Positions 225-40,586 of a stretch of 47,969 nt of DNA are shown here, one piece after another. This DNA comes from Candidatus Bathyarchaeum sp. GTDB lineage: Archaea; Thermoproteota; Bathyarchaeia; Bathyarchaeales; Bathyarchaeaceae. The position numbers and the translations under genes are program-made. Numbering within the stretch: position 1 is the first letter of the stretch; the number at the start of each line of letters is the position of its first letter. The stretch lies in assembly GCA_026014495.1 (NCBI GenBank), contig JAOZIF010000021.1:33249-81217 (forward strand), given 5' to 3'. A model generated the notes under the pieces. The model saw nothing but the letters and a program-made list of their open reading frames with translations. It was not told the DNA's origin and ran no database searches.

Positions 225-1709
225 ATGAGCAGGCCCAGAAATTTCCGCGAACGCGCACCATCGGTTCCCATTGAAAAAATTGACGAATACAGTTGGCGAA
301 TACCCAAAAGCTACAAACAGGGTATGCGTGTTCCAGGAATAGTGTTTGCTGATGAACAGCTCATAGAAAAAATAAAACTTGATAGAACACTTGACCAGTG
401 TGCAAACGTTGCTCATTTGCCGGGCATCTATACGCATGCAATTACTCTACCGGATGGCCATGAAGGATACGGTTTTCCAATAGGTGGTGTGGCTGCTACA
501 GACTATAACGAAGGCGTCATAAGTCCAGGAGGAGTAGGTTACGATATTAACTGTGGAGTCCGCCTGTTAACCACTAACCTTTCTGAAAGCGATGTTAGAC
601 CGTATCTTGCTGCGCTTACCGACAAGATATTCAAAAATGTTCCCAGTGGGCTGGGTAGCTGTCGCAAAGATTTCAGACTAAACATGCATGACCTTGAAGA
701 GTTGATAACACAGGGCGTGTCATGGGCAGTAGAAAAAGGGCTTGGTAGACCTGAAGATATTGAGCATTGTGAAGAAAGAGGCTGTATGGAAGGTGCTAAC
801 CCAGATAAGGTTTCATCTAAAGCAAAGTCAAGAGGTCTTCCCCAAAGCGGTACACTTGGTTCAGGGAACCACTTCTTGGAAATTGGAAAGGTTGACAAGA
901 TTTATGACAAAAAAGTAGCCAAAACCTGCGGGGTTACTCATGAAGGACAGATTACAGTTTTGATTCACTGTGGCTCCCGTGGGTTAGGGCATCAGACTTG
1001 CTCCGATTATCTGCGTGTCATGGAACGCGCAGTGCAAAAATACAATATTTCAATACCTGACCGAGAGCTTGCTTGCGCACCAGCTACAAGCAATGAAGCA
1101 CAAGATTACTATCAGGCTATGGCGTGTGCAGTTAACTATGCTTTTGTTAATCGTCAAGTTATCACTCATTGGGTTCGCCAGAGTTTTGAAGAGGTTCTCA
1201 AGAAATCGTCTGACGATTTGGGATTAGATTTGGTTTACGATGTTGCTCATAACATAGCAAAAATTGAAGAGCACACCATAGAAGGAAAAAGAACCAAAGT
1301 TTGGACCCATAGAAAAGGTGCAACACGATGCTTCCCACCTGACCACAAAGATGTTCCATTAGATTACCGAACTATAGGGCAGCCTGTAATTATACCTGGA
1401 AGCATGGGCACCAGTTCGTGGCTGCTGGTGGGGACACATAAGGCTATGGAGCTTTCTTTTGGTTCCACAGCTCACGGAGCAGGACGCATGATGAGCAGGT
1501 CAGCTGCGAAACGAAAATTCTGGGGTGCAGACGTAAAACAGGCACTAGAAGGCAGAGGCATTTCTGTTAGAGCAGCTAGTTCTGTTATTTTGGCTGAAGA
1601 AGCTGACCCCGCATACAAGAATGTGGATAAAGTCGTGGAAGTAAGTGACCGTGCTGGAATCGCAACAAAGGCTGTTCGGCTGGTTCCGTTGGGCGTAGTA
1701 AAAGGATAA
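225..1709 (+). CDS. rtcB: RNA-splicing ligase RtcB
   Basis: Motifs PDGHEGYGFPIGG, GYDINCGVR, GSGNHFLE, HCGSRGLGH, YDVAHN, HRKGAT, PGSMG, HGAGR and the C-terminal GVVKG. Colinear with archaeal RtcB; no intein seen. Confidence 0.98.
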   Translation: MSRPRNFRERAPSVPIEKIDEYSWRIPKSYKQGMRVPGIVFADEQLIEKIKLDRTLDQCANVAHLPGIYTHAITLPDGHEGYGFPIGGVAATDYNEGVISPGGVGYDINCGVRLLTTNLSESDVRPYLAALTDKIFKNVPSGLGSCRKDFRLNMHDLEELITQGVSWAVEKGLGRPEDIEHCEERGCMEGANPDKVSSKAKSRGLPQSGTLGSGNHFLEIGKVDKIYDKKVAKTCGVTHEGQITVLIHCGSRGLGHQTCSDYLRVMERAVQKYNISIPDRELACAPATSNEAQDYYQAMACAVNYAFVNRQVITHWVRQSFEEVLKKSSDDLGLDLVYDVAHNIAKIEEHTIEGKRTKVWTHRKGATRCFPPDHKDVPLDYRTIGQPVIIPGSMGTSSWLLVGTHKAMELSFGSTAHGAGRMMSRSAAKRKFWGADVKQALEGRGISVRAASSVILAEEADPAYKNVDKVVEVSDRAGIATKAVRLVPLGVVKG

Positions 1710-3387: not shown

Positions 3388-3407
3388 ACTGCAAATCTGC
3401 TGAAAGT

Positions 3408-3718
3408 GGCGGGTCACCTTGGTTCGACGCCCAGTTTTCGCCAGTTTCCTCAACCTCTGAACTCGTATCCGCGGTCCCCTAAGCGCTGAACGTCCAAGCT
3501 TAGGTTGCTCCCTCCCGGGCCTGGCCAGGTTCGCCTGGTAGACACGGTGAACTGCATCCCTACGAAGGCAGCTCCATGACCGCCAGCCTAAGAGGACGGA
3601 TAGTCACGGTTAGAGGACTGAGGTGCCTGACGGTCTTTGACGCCTCGCCAAAGCATTCAGCCCGTCGTGTAGAGGGTTTACGGTTCAGGGGACCCCTAGC
3701 CCCCCGCCTAGACCCGCC
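3408..3718 (-). ncRNA. ffs: Archaeal SRP (7S) RNA
   Basis: Helix 8 GGCCAGGCCCGGGAGGGAGCAACC. The 5' GGCGGGUC (3718-3711) pairs with the 3' GACCCGCC (3415-3408). Alu-like 5' domain, 311 nt long, TATA-like TTTTAAT about 25-30 nt upstream. Confidence 0.96.
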
Positions 3719-3949
3719 AACCAAAACAGATACTATTGAAAGATTAAAAGTTTGTCACAAAAACTGTGGGACTTTTGTGATGTGCAGTGAATTAAGGTTA
3801 GTTGTTTTTTGTTGGTGTTGTATTTTGGTTTGATTTTTGAGTTTGATTTTATGTGGATTTTGACTAATGTATAGTGCTCCTTATTGGTTTTTCACATGTT
3901 TTATATCGACTTGGGGCACCAGTTTTTGTAAACATCGAGTGTGCATTAA

Positions 3950-15012: not shown

Positions 15013-17184
15013 GTGAGCGAAGTACAACTTAGAGTAGAAGACGCTAGACAGCGTGACGTTTATCGTGGAATCGCCCGAATTGACCAGCCAACCATGCAAA
15101 AACTGGGAATTTCAGCGGGCGACGTAATCGAAATTACTGGAAAAAGAAAAACCGCAGCCATAGCATGGCCTGCATATTCTGAAGACCAAAACAGAGACAT
15201 AATCCGAATTGATGGATTCACACGCAAAAACGCGGGAGTTGCAATGCACGAAGTAGTTGTAATTCGTCCAGCACAAGTAACAAACGCAACAACCGTAGTT
15301 CTAGCCCCAATAGACATGAAACTAAACGTTGATGACGACTTCACAAACTTTGTGAAAAACAGGCTTATGGAAAGAACATTCGTGGAGGGCGACACAACAC
15401 TAGTCATGATGCTGGGACATGCCATACCCTTCAGAGTAACCAAATCACGTCCACATGGAATCGTGAGAATCGGTCACGGCACAAGCGTTCAAATCTTAGC
15501 TGAACCCGCCCCTGAAACAGAAGGATTACCACGTACCACCTATGAGGACATAGGCGGACTTCATGAGGAAATTCAGCGAATCCGAGAGATGGTTGAACTC
15601 CCATTACGTCACCCAGAGCTATTCCAAAGGCTTGGAATCGAACCCCCAAAAGGCGTATTGCTCCATGGTCCACCTGGATGTGGAAAAACCCTTCTAGCTC
15701 GTGCAGTTGCAAACGAGTCAGAGGCAAACTTTTACTCAATTAATGGCCCAGAGATAATGAGCAAATTTTACGGCGAATCTGAAGCAAGACTCCGTGAAAT
15801 GTTCCAGCAGGCTCAGAAAAATGCTCCAAGCATAGTCTTTATCGATGAGCTTGACGCTATTGCACCTAAACGAGAAGAGGTAACTGGAGAAGTTGAAAGA
15901 CGAGTTGTGGCTCAGCTTCTCGCTTTGATGGATGGACTTTCAGGAAGAGGCTACCTTATTGTTATAGGCGCTACAAACAGGCCTGAGGCGCTTGACCCTG
16001 CTTTGAGACGTCCTGGACGCTTTGACCGAGAAATTGAGATAGGTGTACCTGACCAAAAAGGACGCTTTGAAGTGCTTCAGATTCACACTAGAGGCATGCC
16101 GCTAAAAGACGATGTTGACATGGAAAAGTTAGCCAAGATGTCTCATGGTTACACGGGCGCAGATTTGTCTTCTTTGGGACGAGAAACCGCCATGAAAGCA
16201 TTACGCAGATACCTCCCAGAAATAAACTTGGAAGAAGAGCGTATTCCTCCTAGTGTTCTAGAGAAAATGGAGGTTCGAATGGAAGACTTCTTGAATGCTT
16301 ACAGGGAAATCACGCCCACAGCCATGAGGGAAGTTTACATAGAAGTTCCTAGTGTTCACTGGACTGAAATAGGCGGTTTAGACGAAATAAAAGAGGATAT
16401 CAGAGAAGCTGTTGAGTGGCCACTCAAGAATCCTGAGGTTTTCATTCGCATGGGCATACGACCCCCAAAGGGCATTATGCTCTATGGACCTCCCGGATGC
16501 GGAAAGACTTTGCTGGCCAGAGCAGTTGCCACAGAAAGTGAAGCAAACTTCATAACAATAAAGGGTCCAGAAGTCTTTTCTAAGTGGGTAGGCGAATCAG
16601 AGAAGGCTATTAGGGAAGTTTTCAGGAAAGCGCGGATGGCTTCTCCAACGGTCATATTCTTTGACGAGTTTGATTCCCTAGTTCCTGGAAGAGGCATGGG
16701 TTACACAGACAGTGGCGTTACAGAACGTGTCATCAGCCAACTTCTAACCGAGATGGATGGGTTAGTCTCGTTGGAGGATGTTGTTATTATCGCTGCAACA
16801 AACAGACCTGACATTGTGGACCCTGCGATTCTTCGACCTGGAAGGTTTGACCGCTTGATTTACGTTCCAGAACCTGACCAAGATAGCAGGCTAAAAATCT
16901 TCAAAATATACACTGAAAAAATGCCGCTGGCAAAAGATGTGGATTTGCCGCAGTTAGTTATTTTGACAAAGAAGTATTCAGGTGCAGACATCGAGGCGCT
17001 TTGTAGAGAGGCTGGACTAAATGCGTTACGGCGGGACATTAATGCTAAGGAAGTTGATGCGACTGACTTTAAGAAAGCTATTGAGAAGATTGGTCCGTCT
17101 ATAATGCCTAACATGGAGAGTTGGTATAAGAGCTTCATGAAGCATGTTCGCCAGTTGAAAAAGTCCACTACGCCTGTGGCTTAG
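15013..17184 (+). CDS. cdc48: Cdc48/VAT AAA+ ATPase
   Basis: N-domain followed by two AAA modules (GPPGCGKT twice, IDELD and FDEFD, RPGRFDR twice). Likely start is GTG 15013; the ORF extends to 14956. Confidence 0.97.
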
Positions 17185-17443: not shown

Positions 17444-17504
17444 TTGCTCTTAAGTTTCTTCTCTTCTTTGGGTGCCTTTAACCAGTGTCTGGTGGCGCAG
17501 AGCT

Positions 17505-18539
17505 TTGGGTGTAAATTTAAGGACGTTGGTGTCTAAAACAAAGGTTGATTTCAAGAGTCTGAGTGGGAAATCTGTAGCTATTGATGCGTATAATGCTCTT
17601 TATCAGTTTTTGGCGATAATTCGTCAGCCAGATGGAACGCCATTAAAGGATTATTCTGGCAGGATAACTAGTCATTTGAGTGGGTTATTTTATCGAACTG
17701 CTAATCTAGTTGAGATGGGTGTAAAGGTTGCTTATGTTTTTGATGGGGTGCCGCCTGCTCTTAAAGAGGCTGAGATTAAACGGCGAGCCAAAGTCAAGGC
17801 TGAGGCTCTGGTGAAGTATGAGCAGGCTGTGCGGGAAGGAAAAATGGAGAAGGCTCGAAGTTATGCTCAGATGACTTCTAAGCTTAAGGATTACATGCCT
17901 GAAGATTCGAAGCGGCTGCTCACGGAGTTGGGTGTTCCTTGGATTCAAGCGCCGTCTGAAGGCGAATCCCAAGCTGCTTACATGACAACAAAGGGCGATG
18001 CTGACTACTGTGGTAGCCAAGATTATGATAGTTTGCTTTTTGGTGCAACTGCTCTGGTGAGAAATGTGACTGTAAGTGGTAGGCGCAAGGTTCCGCGAAA
18101 GCGTGTTTATGTTGAAGTTGTGCCTGAGGTCATGAAGCTAGAGCAGGTGCTCAAAGAGCTTGAGATTACGCGTGAGCAGCTCATAGATGTGGCTATGCTT
18201 GTGGGCACAGACTTTAATCCTGATGGTGTGAAGGGTGTTGGACCCAAGACTGCTTTGAAACTGATAAAAAAGCATGGAAGCATCGAGGATGTGTTGCCTA
18301 GGCTGGAAGATGTAGAGTTTAATGCTGACCCTAACGAGATTCGGAAAATCTTTTTGCATCCAAAAGTTACGGATAACTATCAGCTGGAATGGAAAGCACC
18401 TAATGTTGATGGTGTTATAGATTTTCTTTGTCGTGAAAGAGACTTTTCAGAAGACAGGGTACGTAAAGCACTAGCTAGAATGAGCGCAGGAATAAAGGAG
18501 TCGAAGAGCAAAACAACTCTTGAGTCATGGTTTGGGTAA
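17505..18539 (+). CDS. fen1: Flap endonuclease 1
   Basis: TTG start giving MGVNL; AIDAYNALYQFL, EGESQAA, SQDYDSLLFG, VGTDFN and the C-terminal PIP box KTTLESWF. Confidence 0.97.
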   Translation: MGVNLRTLVSKTKVDFKSLSGKSVAIDAYNALYQFLAIIRQPDGTPLKDYSGRITSHLSGLFYRTANLVEMGVKVAYVFDGVPPALKEAEIKRRAKVKAEALVKYEQAVREGKMEKARSYAQMTSKLKDYMPEDSKRLLTELGVPWIQAPSEGESQAAYMTTKGDADYCGSQDYDSLLFGATALVRNVTVSGRRKVPRKRVYVEVVPEVMKLEQVLKELEITREQLIDVAMLVGTDFNPDGVKGVGPKTALKLIKKHGSIEDVLPRLEDVEFNADPNEIRKIFLHPKVTDNYQLEWKAPNVDGVIDFLCRERDFSEDRVRKALARMSAGIKESKSKTTLESWFG

Positions 18540-18545
18540 ATCTAG

Positions 18546-19253
18546 CTATTGCTGCTGGAAGCCATGCTTACCAATTAAGGGCACAAATGCGACTCCGCCC
18601 AAGTTTTCCGTAATCAGTTTGCCGTTAATCTTTCTGACTCTGACCAATGTTTGATAGAATTGGGCGCCGCCCACAGGAACAAGAAGAACTCCATCATCTT
18701 TTAGTTGTTCAACCAAGGGTTCTGGGACTTGTGGACCAGCCGCTGCAACTATTATGCGGTTATATGGTGCTTGTTCGGGGTAACCTAAAGTTCCGTCTTG
18801 GTGAATTACTGTAACTCGGTCGGCGTAGCCTGCTTTTTCAAGGTTGTCTTTGGCGAATGCAGCTAACTCGGGTATTCTTTCCACGGTGTAAACGTGACCC
18901 CATTTTGTTTTAGGTGCGTCTGAGGGTGCCACTATTTCTGCTATGGTTGCGGCGTGCCAGCCACAGCCTGCACCTACTTCTAGTACTGTGTGTCCAACTT
19001 TTAGTTCGAGGGCTTCATCCATTATGGATACCATGTTTCGCCTAGTTGACCGCACGTGTCAACCAAGAGGCGCAGAAGCTGTTTGCCCCGAACCTATCGG
19101 AAGCGGACAATCCAATGCTGCATTCGCTTTCACGTTTTTGGGAACAAACGATTCACGCGGAACCCTCCGCAACGCCCTAATAACATCAGGTGACCCAAGA
19201 ACACCACTACTAACCAATTTTTGAATCAAAACATCCCAAGACTGCCGACCCAT
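18546..19253 (-). CDS. pcm: Protein-L-isoaspartate O-methyltransferase, split by a 30-nt BHB intron (exons 19253-19067 and 19036-18546; 225 aa spliced)
   Basis: The two ORF-track pieces are in the same frame. Motifs VPRESF, PLPIG.GQT.SAP[H]M, VLEVGAGCG, DGTLGY, PYNRIIVAAA and VAFVPL. Confidence 0.92.
19037..19066 (-). other. Putative bulge-helix-bulge mRNA intron (30 nt, phase 1, contains an in-frame UGA)
   Basis: mRNA reads GCGCCUC|UUGGUUGACACGUGCGGUCAACUAGGCGAA|ACAUG. Central helix CGCC/GGCG, 3-nt bulges UCU and AAA, 8-bp intron stem UGGUUGAC/GUCAACUA. Cutting after the second bulge nucleotide on each side gives GCG CCU CAC AUG = A-P-H-M. Confidence 0.85.
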
Positions 19254-39918: not shown

Positions 39919-40452
39919 TTGAAGACACTAAATATTATTTATATAATCAGAGTCTGCCTAGGAATCTTCGCTGCTCTCATAGCTGCCTTAGTGGTGGACC
40001 TTAAAGTAGGCGACCCACTCATAAATGGCATAACTGTTGCATTAGCTGTATATCTTATCACATATTATCTTCTTAAATGGCAGTTTGGAACCAAAGTGGA
40101 AAAGCCAACCAAGATTCTTTCAATGGGAATCTTTGTTTACTTTATCGTGTTTATCATGTGCTGGGTTCTATTTGTCACGCCTTCCCTTTCCGCTCCAACC
40201 GTAGCATTCACTGTAGACCCACAAACGGCCGCAGTTGATGAAGCTATAACCTTCACATCAACCAGCGAAGACGCAGATGGGGAAATAGTCAAGTATGTTT
40301 GGGACTTTGGAGACGAAACCACCAGTGAAGAAATGAATCCCACTCACACGTATAGCGTAGCTGGAGAATATACAGTTAAACTAAAAGTGGTAGATGACCA
40401 CGGAATAAGCATGACTAACACAACAACCCTGACAGTAAATGCTCTTGGTTAA
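39919..40452 (+). CDS. Three-TM (EMC6/DUF5379-like) protein fused to a C-terminal PKD domain
   Basis: Three TMs ending K.LSMGIFVYFIVFIMCWVLF, then FTSTSEDADGEIVKYVWDFGD...PTHTYSVAGEYTVKLKVVDDHG. Confidence 0.75.
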   Translation: MKTLNIIYIIRVCLGIFAALIAALVVDLKVGDPLINGITVALAVYLITYYLLKWQFGTKVEKPTKILSMGIFVYFIVFIMCWVLFVTPSLSAPTVAFTVDPQTAAVDEAITFTSTSEDADGEIVKYVWDFGDETTSEEMNPTHTYSVAGEYTVKLKVVDDHGISMTNTTTLTVNALG

Positions 40453-40586
40453 CAATTGGTTGATGTTGGTTTATAGCTAACTGATTTTTTGTTGCTTTTC
40501 AGCTTTCTTAGAAAAAGCTCTGGTCTTGATTATTTAACAGCTCATGCTCTTTTATCATGAAAACTTGGAAAATACGCCAAGGAGCT

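Follow-up and report, generated by a model that had tools for sequence, protein, structure and literature searches.

The protein-repair gene pcm of a bathyarchaeon is interrupted by a short insert that would be removed from the messenger RNA as a bulge-helix-bulge (BHB) intron, by the enzymes of tRNA splicing. The stretch of DNA analyzed here, referred to as the window, comprises 47,969 nucleotides (nt) of Candidatus Bathyarchaeum sp. (GenBank assembly GCA_026014495.1, contig JAOZIF010000021.1, positions 33,249 to 81,217) and belongs to a metagenome-assembled genome (MAG) of 2.19 Mb in 196 contigs, with a G+C content of 40.9%. In the list of open reading frames (ORFs) and in translation, the minus-strand frame of pcm reads ...GQTASAPLG, meets a UGA, and resumes as HVRSTRRNMVSIM...; the interruption is 30 nt long and includes the UGA in frame (Table 1). 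We put the probability that this is a genuine pre-mRNA intron, spliced by the endonuclease EndA and the ligase RtcB, at about 0.9. The evidence consists of the anatomy of the insert, its conservation and covariation in related genomes, the existence of alleles from which it is precisely absent, and the presence of both enzymes in the genome.

The host gene belongs to the PCMT (PF01135), or protein-L-isoaspartate O-methyltransferase (PIMT), family, and both of its exons score above the Pfam cut-off of 20.3 bits: exon 1 matches profile positions 5-59 (E 2.9e-09, 37.5 bits) and exon 2 matches positions 61-208 (E 5.4e-41, 141.1 bits). Across the two exons exactly one profile position is absent, and 30 nt are extra. 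The gene is single-copy, and the genome contains no intronless paralog. Excision of 19066..19037 brings C19067 to A19036 and C19035, forming the codon CAC within CCU-CAC-AUG (P-H-M), and the peptide across the predicted splice junction reads ...TASAPHMVSIMDEALELK. Counted from ATG 19253, the spliced message would encode 62+1+162 = 225 amino acids (aa), compared with 64 aa for the unspliced ORF.

Table 1. Features of the predicted pcm intron, its exons, and related genes (window coordinates unless a contig is named).
Feature	Position	Strand	Description or basis
pcm exon 1	19067..19253	-	62 codons + C19067, first base of the split His codon; ATG 19253
pcm exon 1, alternative starts	ATG 19265, TTG 19283	-	ORF list
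Predicted 30-nt BHB intron	19037..19066	-	sequence, fold, covariation, intronless alleles
Intron contents	UGA 19061-19059; 3' strand of central helix 19042-19039	-	UGA, inner stem, 7-nt loop, 3' strand of central helix
pcm exon 2	18546..19036	-	A19036 C19035 (His codon bases 2-3), 162 codons from ATG 19034, TAG 18548-18546
Exon-1 part of splice motif	19069..19074	-	U19074, G19073, CGCC 19072-19069; the same bases encode Ala-Pro
Exon-2 part of outer helix	19034..19035	-	C19035, A19034 (alignment pairs 7-48, 6-49)
Outer pairs	U19074-A19034, G19073-C19035	-	2 base pairs (bp)
Central helix	C19072-C19069 with G19042-G19039	-	CGCC with GGCG, 4 bp
Bulges	19068-19066; 19038-19036	-	UCU; AAA; 3 nt each
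Inner stem	19065-19058 with 19050-19043	-	8 bp, one G.U among them
Loop	19057-19051	-	7 nt
rtcB	225..1709	+	494-aa ORF; PF01139 RtcB, E 3.5e-174, match at window 396-1706
cbf5 insert	contig C93 (L094) 842-862	-	21 nt with in-frame UAA; splits GHGGTL / D / PKVTG
cbf5 exons	L094:864-1136 and L094:72-839	-	exon 1 DKCLD; exon 2 TruB_N from profile 17, TruB_C_2, PUA

The insert and its flanks form two 3-nt bulges on opposite strands with a 4-bp helix between them, and the length of the bulges is constant across relatives. In the mechanism we propose, the Ala-Pro codons of the transcript (CGCC) would pair with GGCG at the 3' end of the insert, the resulting helix being flanked by the UCU and AAA bulges and the 8-bp stem. 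EndA would then cut after the second base of each bulge (UC^U, AA^A), and RtcB would join ...GCGCCUC to ACAUGG..., restoring the His of the conserved SAPHM motif and yielding a 225-aa PIMT, while the 30-nt intron would be released, probably as a circle; unspliced RNA would stop after 64 codons. We infer cleavage, ligation, and circularization in vivo, as well as the way in which the intron has been lost from some genomes (see below). The original prediction had described the insert with its UGA and the BHB fold, every detail of which is correct on the minus strand. Recomputing its cut rule returned the same 30-nt excision, the same P-H-M junction, and the same product sizes, and the predicted junction is found in intronless congeners.

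Comparison with relatives, one of the checks that the original prediction had put forward, provides the strongest evidence. We searched exon 2 against 40 related genomes, recovered pcm in 39 of 41 genomes, and grouped the loci according to the sequence that precedes the Met codon. An insert interrupts the same codon at 14 of the 22 loci of the host's own genus and at every one of the 8 loci that represent other families of the order. With named records added, the collection comprised 38 distinct intron-bearing alleles with inserts of 28-33 nt, and further loci beyond these carry inserts of 34 and 40 nt. Every one of the 38 alleles is unreadable unless spliced: in the 14 whose insert length is a multiple of three, a UGA or UAG lies in frame, and in the other 24 the insert causes a frameshift. 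Predicted excision gives GQT-x-SAPHM in all of them.

Covariation was measured on a MAFFT alignment of the same 38 alleles. Of the cells in the proposed structure, 93.6% are paired, compared with 21-36% when the 3' partners are slid by 1-3 columns; both sides change in 9 of the 14 pairs, and none of 500 shuffles reached any of the observed measures. The central helix is paired in all 38 alleles (100% of cells) and includes one compensated change, from G-C to A-U. The inner stem is 95.4% paired, and all eight of its pairs covary with changes on both sides, as exemplified by pair 18-37, which is C-G in 17 alleles, U-A in 17, and U-G in 3. An alignment-free count anchored on the coding frame gave a similar result, with the first six stem pairs 97.4% paired, compared with 5-42% when slid. 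The anticipated features, namely an insert at the same codon, conserved BHB pairing, and compensatory changes in the stem, were thus all present.

The same alleles distinguish between the 2 registers in which the motif can be drawn. The 30-nt register includes pairs 8-44 and 15-40, which form in 38 of 38 alleles; both are lost in the 28-nt register, which gains pair 12-40 in only 26 of the 38, mostly as U.G. The choice of 30 over 28 nt made in the original prediction is therefore upheld. In every allele the predicted cut, two bases into each bulge, would restore P-H-M, in agreement with the sequence of the intronless ones. Furthermore, the C at position 2 of the 5' bulge, the A at position 3 of the 3' bulge, and the C that follows are invariant, and the adjacent intron bases vary, a pattern that fits the predicted intron borders because the conserved letters are those of the split His codon.

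The predicted product of splicing exists as a natural sequence. The insert is missing from 8 of the 22 congeners, at the orthologous locus beside the same convergent FEN1 gene, and these genomes read GCGCCTCACATGG or synonymous variants of it, precisely as predicted for the ligated junction. In a maximum-likelihood tree built from the joined coding sequences, the presence or absence of the insert must change at least three times within the genus, on starred branches as well. Since all outgroup families carry the insert, at least three precise intron losses within the genus are the simplest reading of this single-gene tree, in which recombination is possible. The losses may have proceeded by reverse transcription of spliced RNA followed by recombination, as has been proposed for the intron of cbf5. 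The FEN1 flap endonuclease gene itself (window 17472-18539, plus strand) converges on pcm, leaving 7 nt between the two stop codons, and this neighborhood is kept in 26 of the 30 relatives examined, whether intron-bearing or not.

To chart the wider distribution, we ran a pattern scan over 401 genomes of the phylum, which returned 40 matches, 39 of them with the hairpin. The hairpin matches comprise 26 in the host's own order, all 8 genomes of family f28, 3 genomes of family f39, and 2 of family f43, the last three families carrying the label "same phylum" only. Continuous pcm genes were found in four families labeled "same class" and in family f6 of the host's own order. In a protein tree the intron-bearing genes fall on one side, with weak support. 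The intron would be old, being common to most families of the order and to three further families of the phylum, and the distribution is compatible with a single gain followed by losses, without showing it. The same pcm intron is also carried by JAEOSI010000127.1, a 6.6-kb contig filed under an Asgard name, Candidatus Wukongarchaeum yapensis. The junction region of this contig is identical to that of a Bathyarchaeia contig, and the record reflects either contamination of the bin or real presence outside Bathyarchaeia.

Several observations weigh against splicing as an explanation of the insert. The minimum free energy of the region folded as a single sequence is -17 kcal/mol, with z = -1.56 relative to shuffled sequences, which is not significant, so that the case beyond chance rests on the comparison with relatives. 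The outer helix is weak: it has 2 bp here, of which one is an invariant G-C pair and the second forms in 18 of the 38 alleles, and the pcm motif sits at the relaxed end of the hBHBh' structure. A search of sequencing runs returned none recorded as RNA that contains the organism, and one DNA run from sediment (0.17 share of words). Finally, exon 2 opens with an AUG two bases past the cut, and a separately translated C-terminal fragment is conceivable.

This last point introduces the first of the rival explanations, in which the insert is kept and pcm is a split gene, a 64-aa polypeptide ending at the UGA and a 162-aa polypeptide starting from AUG 19034 assembling into an active enzyme. Besides the AUG directly after the insert, a GGCGA upstream of it that could serve as a weak ribosome-binding site and the many exon-2-only proteins of 157-161 aa among public gene calls speak for such an arrangement. 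However, it offers no reason for a conserved and covarying BHB geometry with 3-nt bulges, and it would forfeit a conserved His, the three bases of which flank the insert and never vary. Moreover, in 4 of the 38 alleles exon 1 meets no stop within the insert and continues out of frame, and the intronless alleles encode one continuous protein. We accordingly grant this arrangement only a slim chance.

A marginally slimmer chance attaches to cleavage without ligation, in which the EndA cut would serve to shut off the pcm message or to lower its level, leaving the gene functionally silent in intron-bearing lineages. EndA does process substrates other than introns, such as rRNA precursors (PMC7714728), yet both exons are under purifying selection and free of stops across many insert-bearing families, at 62-84% protein identity, each allele has cut sites that bring the exons back into frame, and no second copy of pcm is present. 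Even less can be said for translational bypass or recoding, with ribosomes hopping over the insert or reading through it. A precedent is found in gene 60 of phage T4, in which a short structured gap with a stop codon at its start is bypassed by ribosomes. The pcm inserts vary in length from 28 to 40 nt, most of them shifting the frame, and lack matching take-off and landing codons; the His codon, furthermore, arises only from the joining of C and AC, so that no hop would give SAPHM. We regard this explanation as scarcely credible.

The possibility that the insert is a product of gene decay or misassembly is raised by the state of the genome, a MAG in 196 contigs. It is refuted by the occurrence of the same insert in dozens of independent assemblies, closed chromosomes among them, and by DNA contigs from an independent sediment metagenome, another sequencing run, that cross the insert without a gap; a check for artefacts had been suggested with the original prediction, and the insert withstood it. 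Decay is further at odds with exons that are intact everywhere, and the likelihood left to it is negligible. We favor splicing by EndA and RtcB over all of these explanations because the rivals leave the bulge geometry, the covariation, the invariant split His codon, and the intronless alleles unexplained.

The genome encodes the enzymes that splicing would require. Two EndA-family genes (PF01974) are located on different contigs (C115, in the region 15549-15806, and C16, in the region 40222-40476); the product of one most closely resembles catalytic subunits from crenarchaeal heterotetramers (2CV8, 3P1Z_B, 2ZYZ_B) and that of the other the enzymes of M. kandleri and M. jannaschii. The presence of two paralogs suggests that the enzyme is probably heteromeric and of broad specificity. 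PMC5829648 describes heteromeric EndA and the epsilon2 type as those able to cut non-canonical introns. The gene for the 3'-phosphate RNA ligase RtcB shares the window with the split pcm at a distance of 17 kb, which implies no functional link. ARAGORN identified only 20 tRNA genes in this genome, which is estimated to be 93% complete, many of them with introns and some with introns at non-canonical positions; many others were probably missed owing to multiple or unusual introns. With regard to other structured RNAs, no Rfam family overlaps the pcm insert, and the archaeal signal recognition particle RNA at window 3407-3719 (minus strand) is a full-length, uninterrupted Rfam match of 168 bits.

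To place the pcm motif in its genomic context, we searched the genome in full for strict BHB motifs that, once removed, would leave two open frames joined. Ranked by helix strength, pcm was the second strongest of 770 candidates. A ranking by codon-usage score failed to part true from false cases, with pcm 94th of 309, and a filter on ORF length rejects pcm, as a longer antisense ORF overlaps its exon 1. Most of the other ORF-joining candidates either were junctions of neighboring genes, such as aroA/aroC, nadC/nadB, or L29 and the next gene, or had "exons" that were not protein-like; these were rejected by eye, with Pfam checks on some of them. The strongest strict motif of the scan, at C102:16458-16560 on the minus strand, has helices GCUG/CAGC, an 8-bp stem, and AAA in both bulges. 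It would delimit a 103-nt "intron" between "exons" unlike protein, and may belong to a non-coding RNA gene.

A relaxed version of the scan, combined with the joining of open frames, recovered a second predicted coding-region mRNA intron in the same genome, in cbf5, so that the genome-wide search proposed with the original prediction proved productive beyond the high rank of pcm. The cbf5 insert falls between the first and second bases of the catalytic Asp codon, which is the position of the published crenarchaeal cbf5 intron (PMC2738675). Among 81 genomes of the order, a pattern scan found 44 with such an insert in cbf5, and both the stems and the central helix show compensating changes (CCCU/GGGG, CUCU/AGAG, CCUU/AAGG). 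The 2009 paper had placed this intron in the ancestor of Desulfurococcales and Sulfolobales only (PMC2738675). The presence of an intron type whose splicing in a coding region has been validated experimentally makes mRNA splicing by the host's enzymes more credible.

In the literature searched, no paper joins bulge-helix-bulge with isoaspartate methyltransferase, none reports a pcm intron, and none reports mRNA introns for Bathyarchaeota or Bathyarchaeia; archaeal mRNA introns are likewise absent from a 2026 review of non-canonical splicing. This agrees with the remark in the original prediction that no pcm intron was known to have been reported. Within the same literature, cbf5 has been since 2002 the sole protein-coding sequence of archaea with a demonstrated need for tRNA-type splicing (PMC2738675; PMC7714728, 2020), and HVO_1309 of Haloferax volcanii is the sole mRNA case in a 5' untranslated region (PMC7714728).

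The closest known system is the cbf5 intron of Desulfurococcales and Sulfolobales (Watanabe 2002; Yoshinari 2006; Yokobori 2009, PMC2738675). Both are short BHB introns within coding sequence that interrupt a codon of the enzyme's most conserved motif and leave the unspliced message unreadable. In either case the host encodes EndA by two genes, and precise losses have occurred in particular lineages. They differ in the host gene, which for pcm encodes a protein-repair methyltransferase, in lineage, which for pcm comprises Bathyarchaeia and neighbors, and in the codon interrupted, the pcm intron lying between bases 1 and 2 of a His codon rather than in the catalytic Asp codon; the splicing of pcm, moreover, is predicted from sequence. 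Pre-tRNA BHB introns (Marck and Grosjean 2003; Fujishima and Kanai 2014, PMC4033280), which are numerous in this genome, share with pcm the two 3-nt bulges, the 4-bp helix, the intron stem, a similar size range, and EndA and RtcB as the presumed enzymes, whereas the host RNA of pcm is an mRNA, its helix is drawn from Ala-Pro codons instead of anticodon-arm bases, and its outer helix is only 1-2 bp. For the HVO_1309 intron, the action of the splicing endonuclease on an mRNA has been confirmed both in vivo and in vitro (Schwarz et al. 2020, PMC7714728); this intron is located in the untranslated leader, and the reading frame is independent of it. A more distant parallel is the IRE1/RtcB splicing of XBP1/HAC1, in which a protein endonuclease likewise recognizes two stem-loop or bulge sites in an mRNA, a ligase rejoins the ends, and the frame changes. 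According to PMC8718801, that ligase is RtcB in animals. The IRE1 endonuclease and its recognition motif differ from those proposed here, and that system is regulated by endoplasmic reticulum stress.

The original prediction held that the intron makes a protein-repair enzyme depend on tRNA-splicing capacity. Such dependence follows trivially from the presence of an intron, whereas a regulatory role is unsupported. We read the repeated loss, at least three times within one genus, as the mark of a dispensable passenger, a tolerated intron that persists in places where the exon side of the motif can be drawn from codons that do not vary. A broader proposal, which would take the pcm and cbf5 introns of this one genome as more than isolated oddities, would see EndA/RtcB splicing of mRNA as a regular and ancient layer of gene expression in Bathyarchaeia and neighbors, one that is rate-limiting, so that tRNA-splicing capacity would gate enzymes of protein repair and ribosome modification; we consider this doubtful.

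If spliced as predicted, pcm would be the second coding-region case of its kind, in which one codon is interrupted across a large uncultured group and natural intronless alleles confirm the splice junction, and the reach of the endonuclease/ligase pathway over messages may be wider than has been assumed. Such introns also cause annotation pipelines to miscall genes, as the truncated PIMT proteins in public gene calls illustrate: among the best 120 public protein clusters for exon 2, approximately 90 are 157-166 aa long and start at the Met of HMV, and approximately 26 are 223-224 aa long. The exon-2-only calls indicate that gene callers systematically truncate pcm in intron-bearing lineages. 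Finally, the polymorphism of presence and absence inside a single genus is well suited to the study of intron loss.
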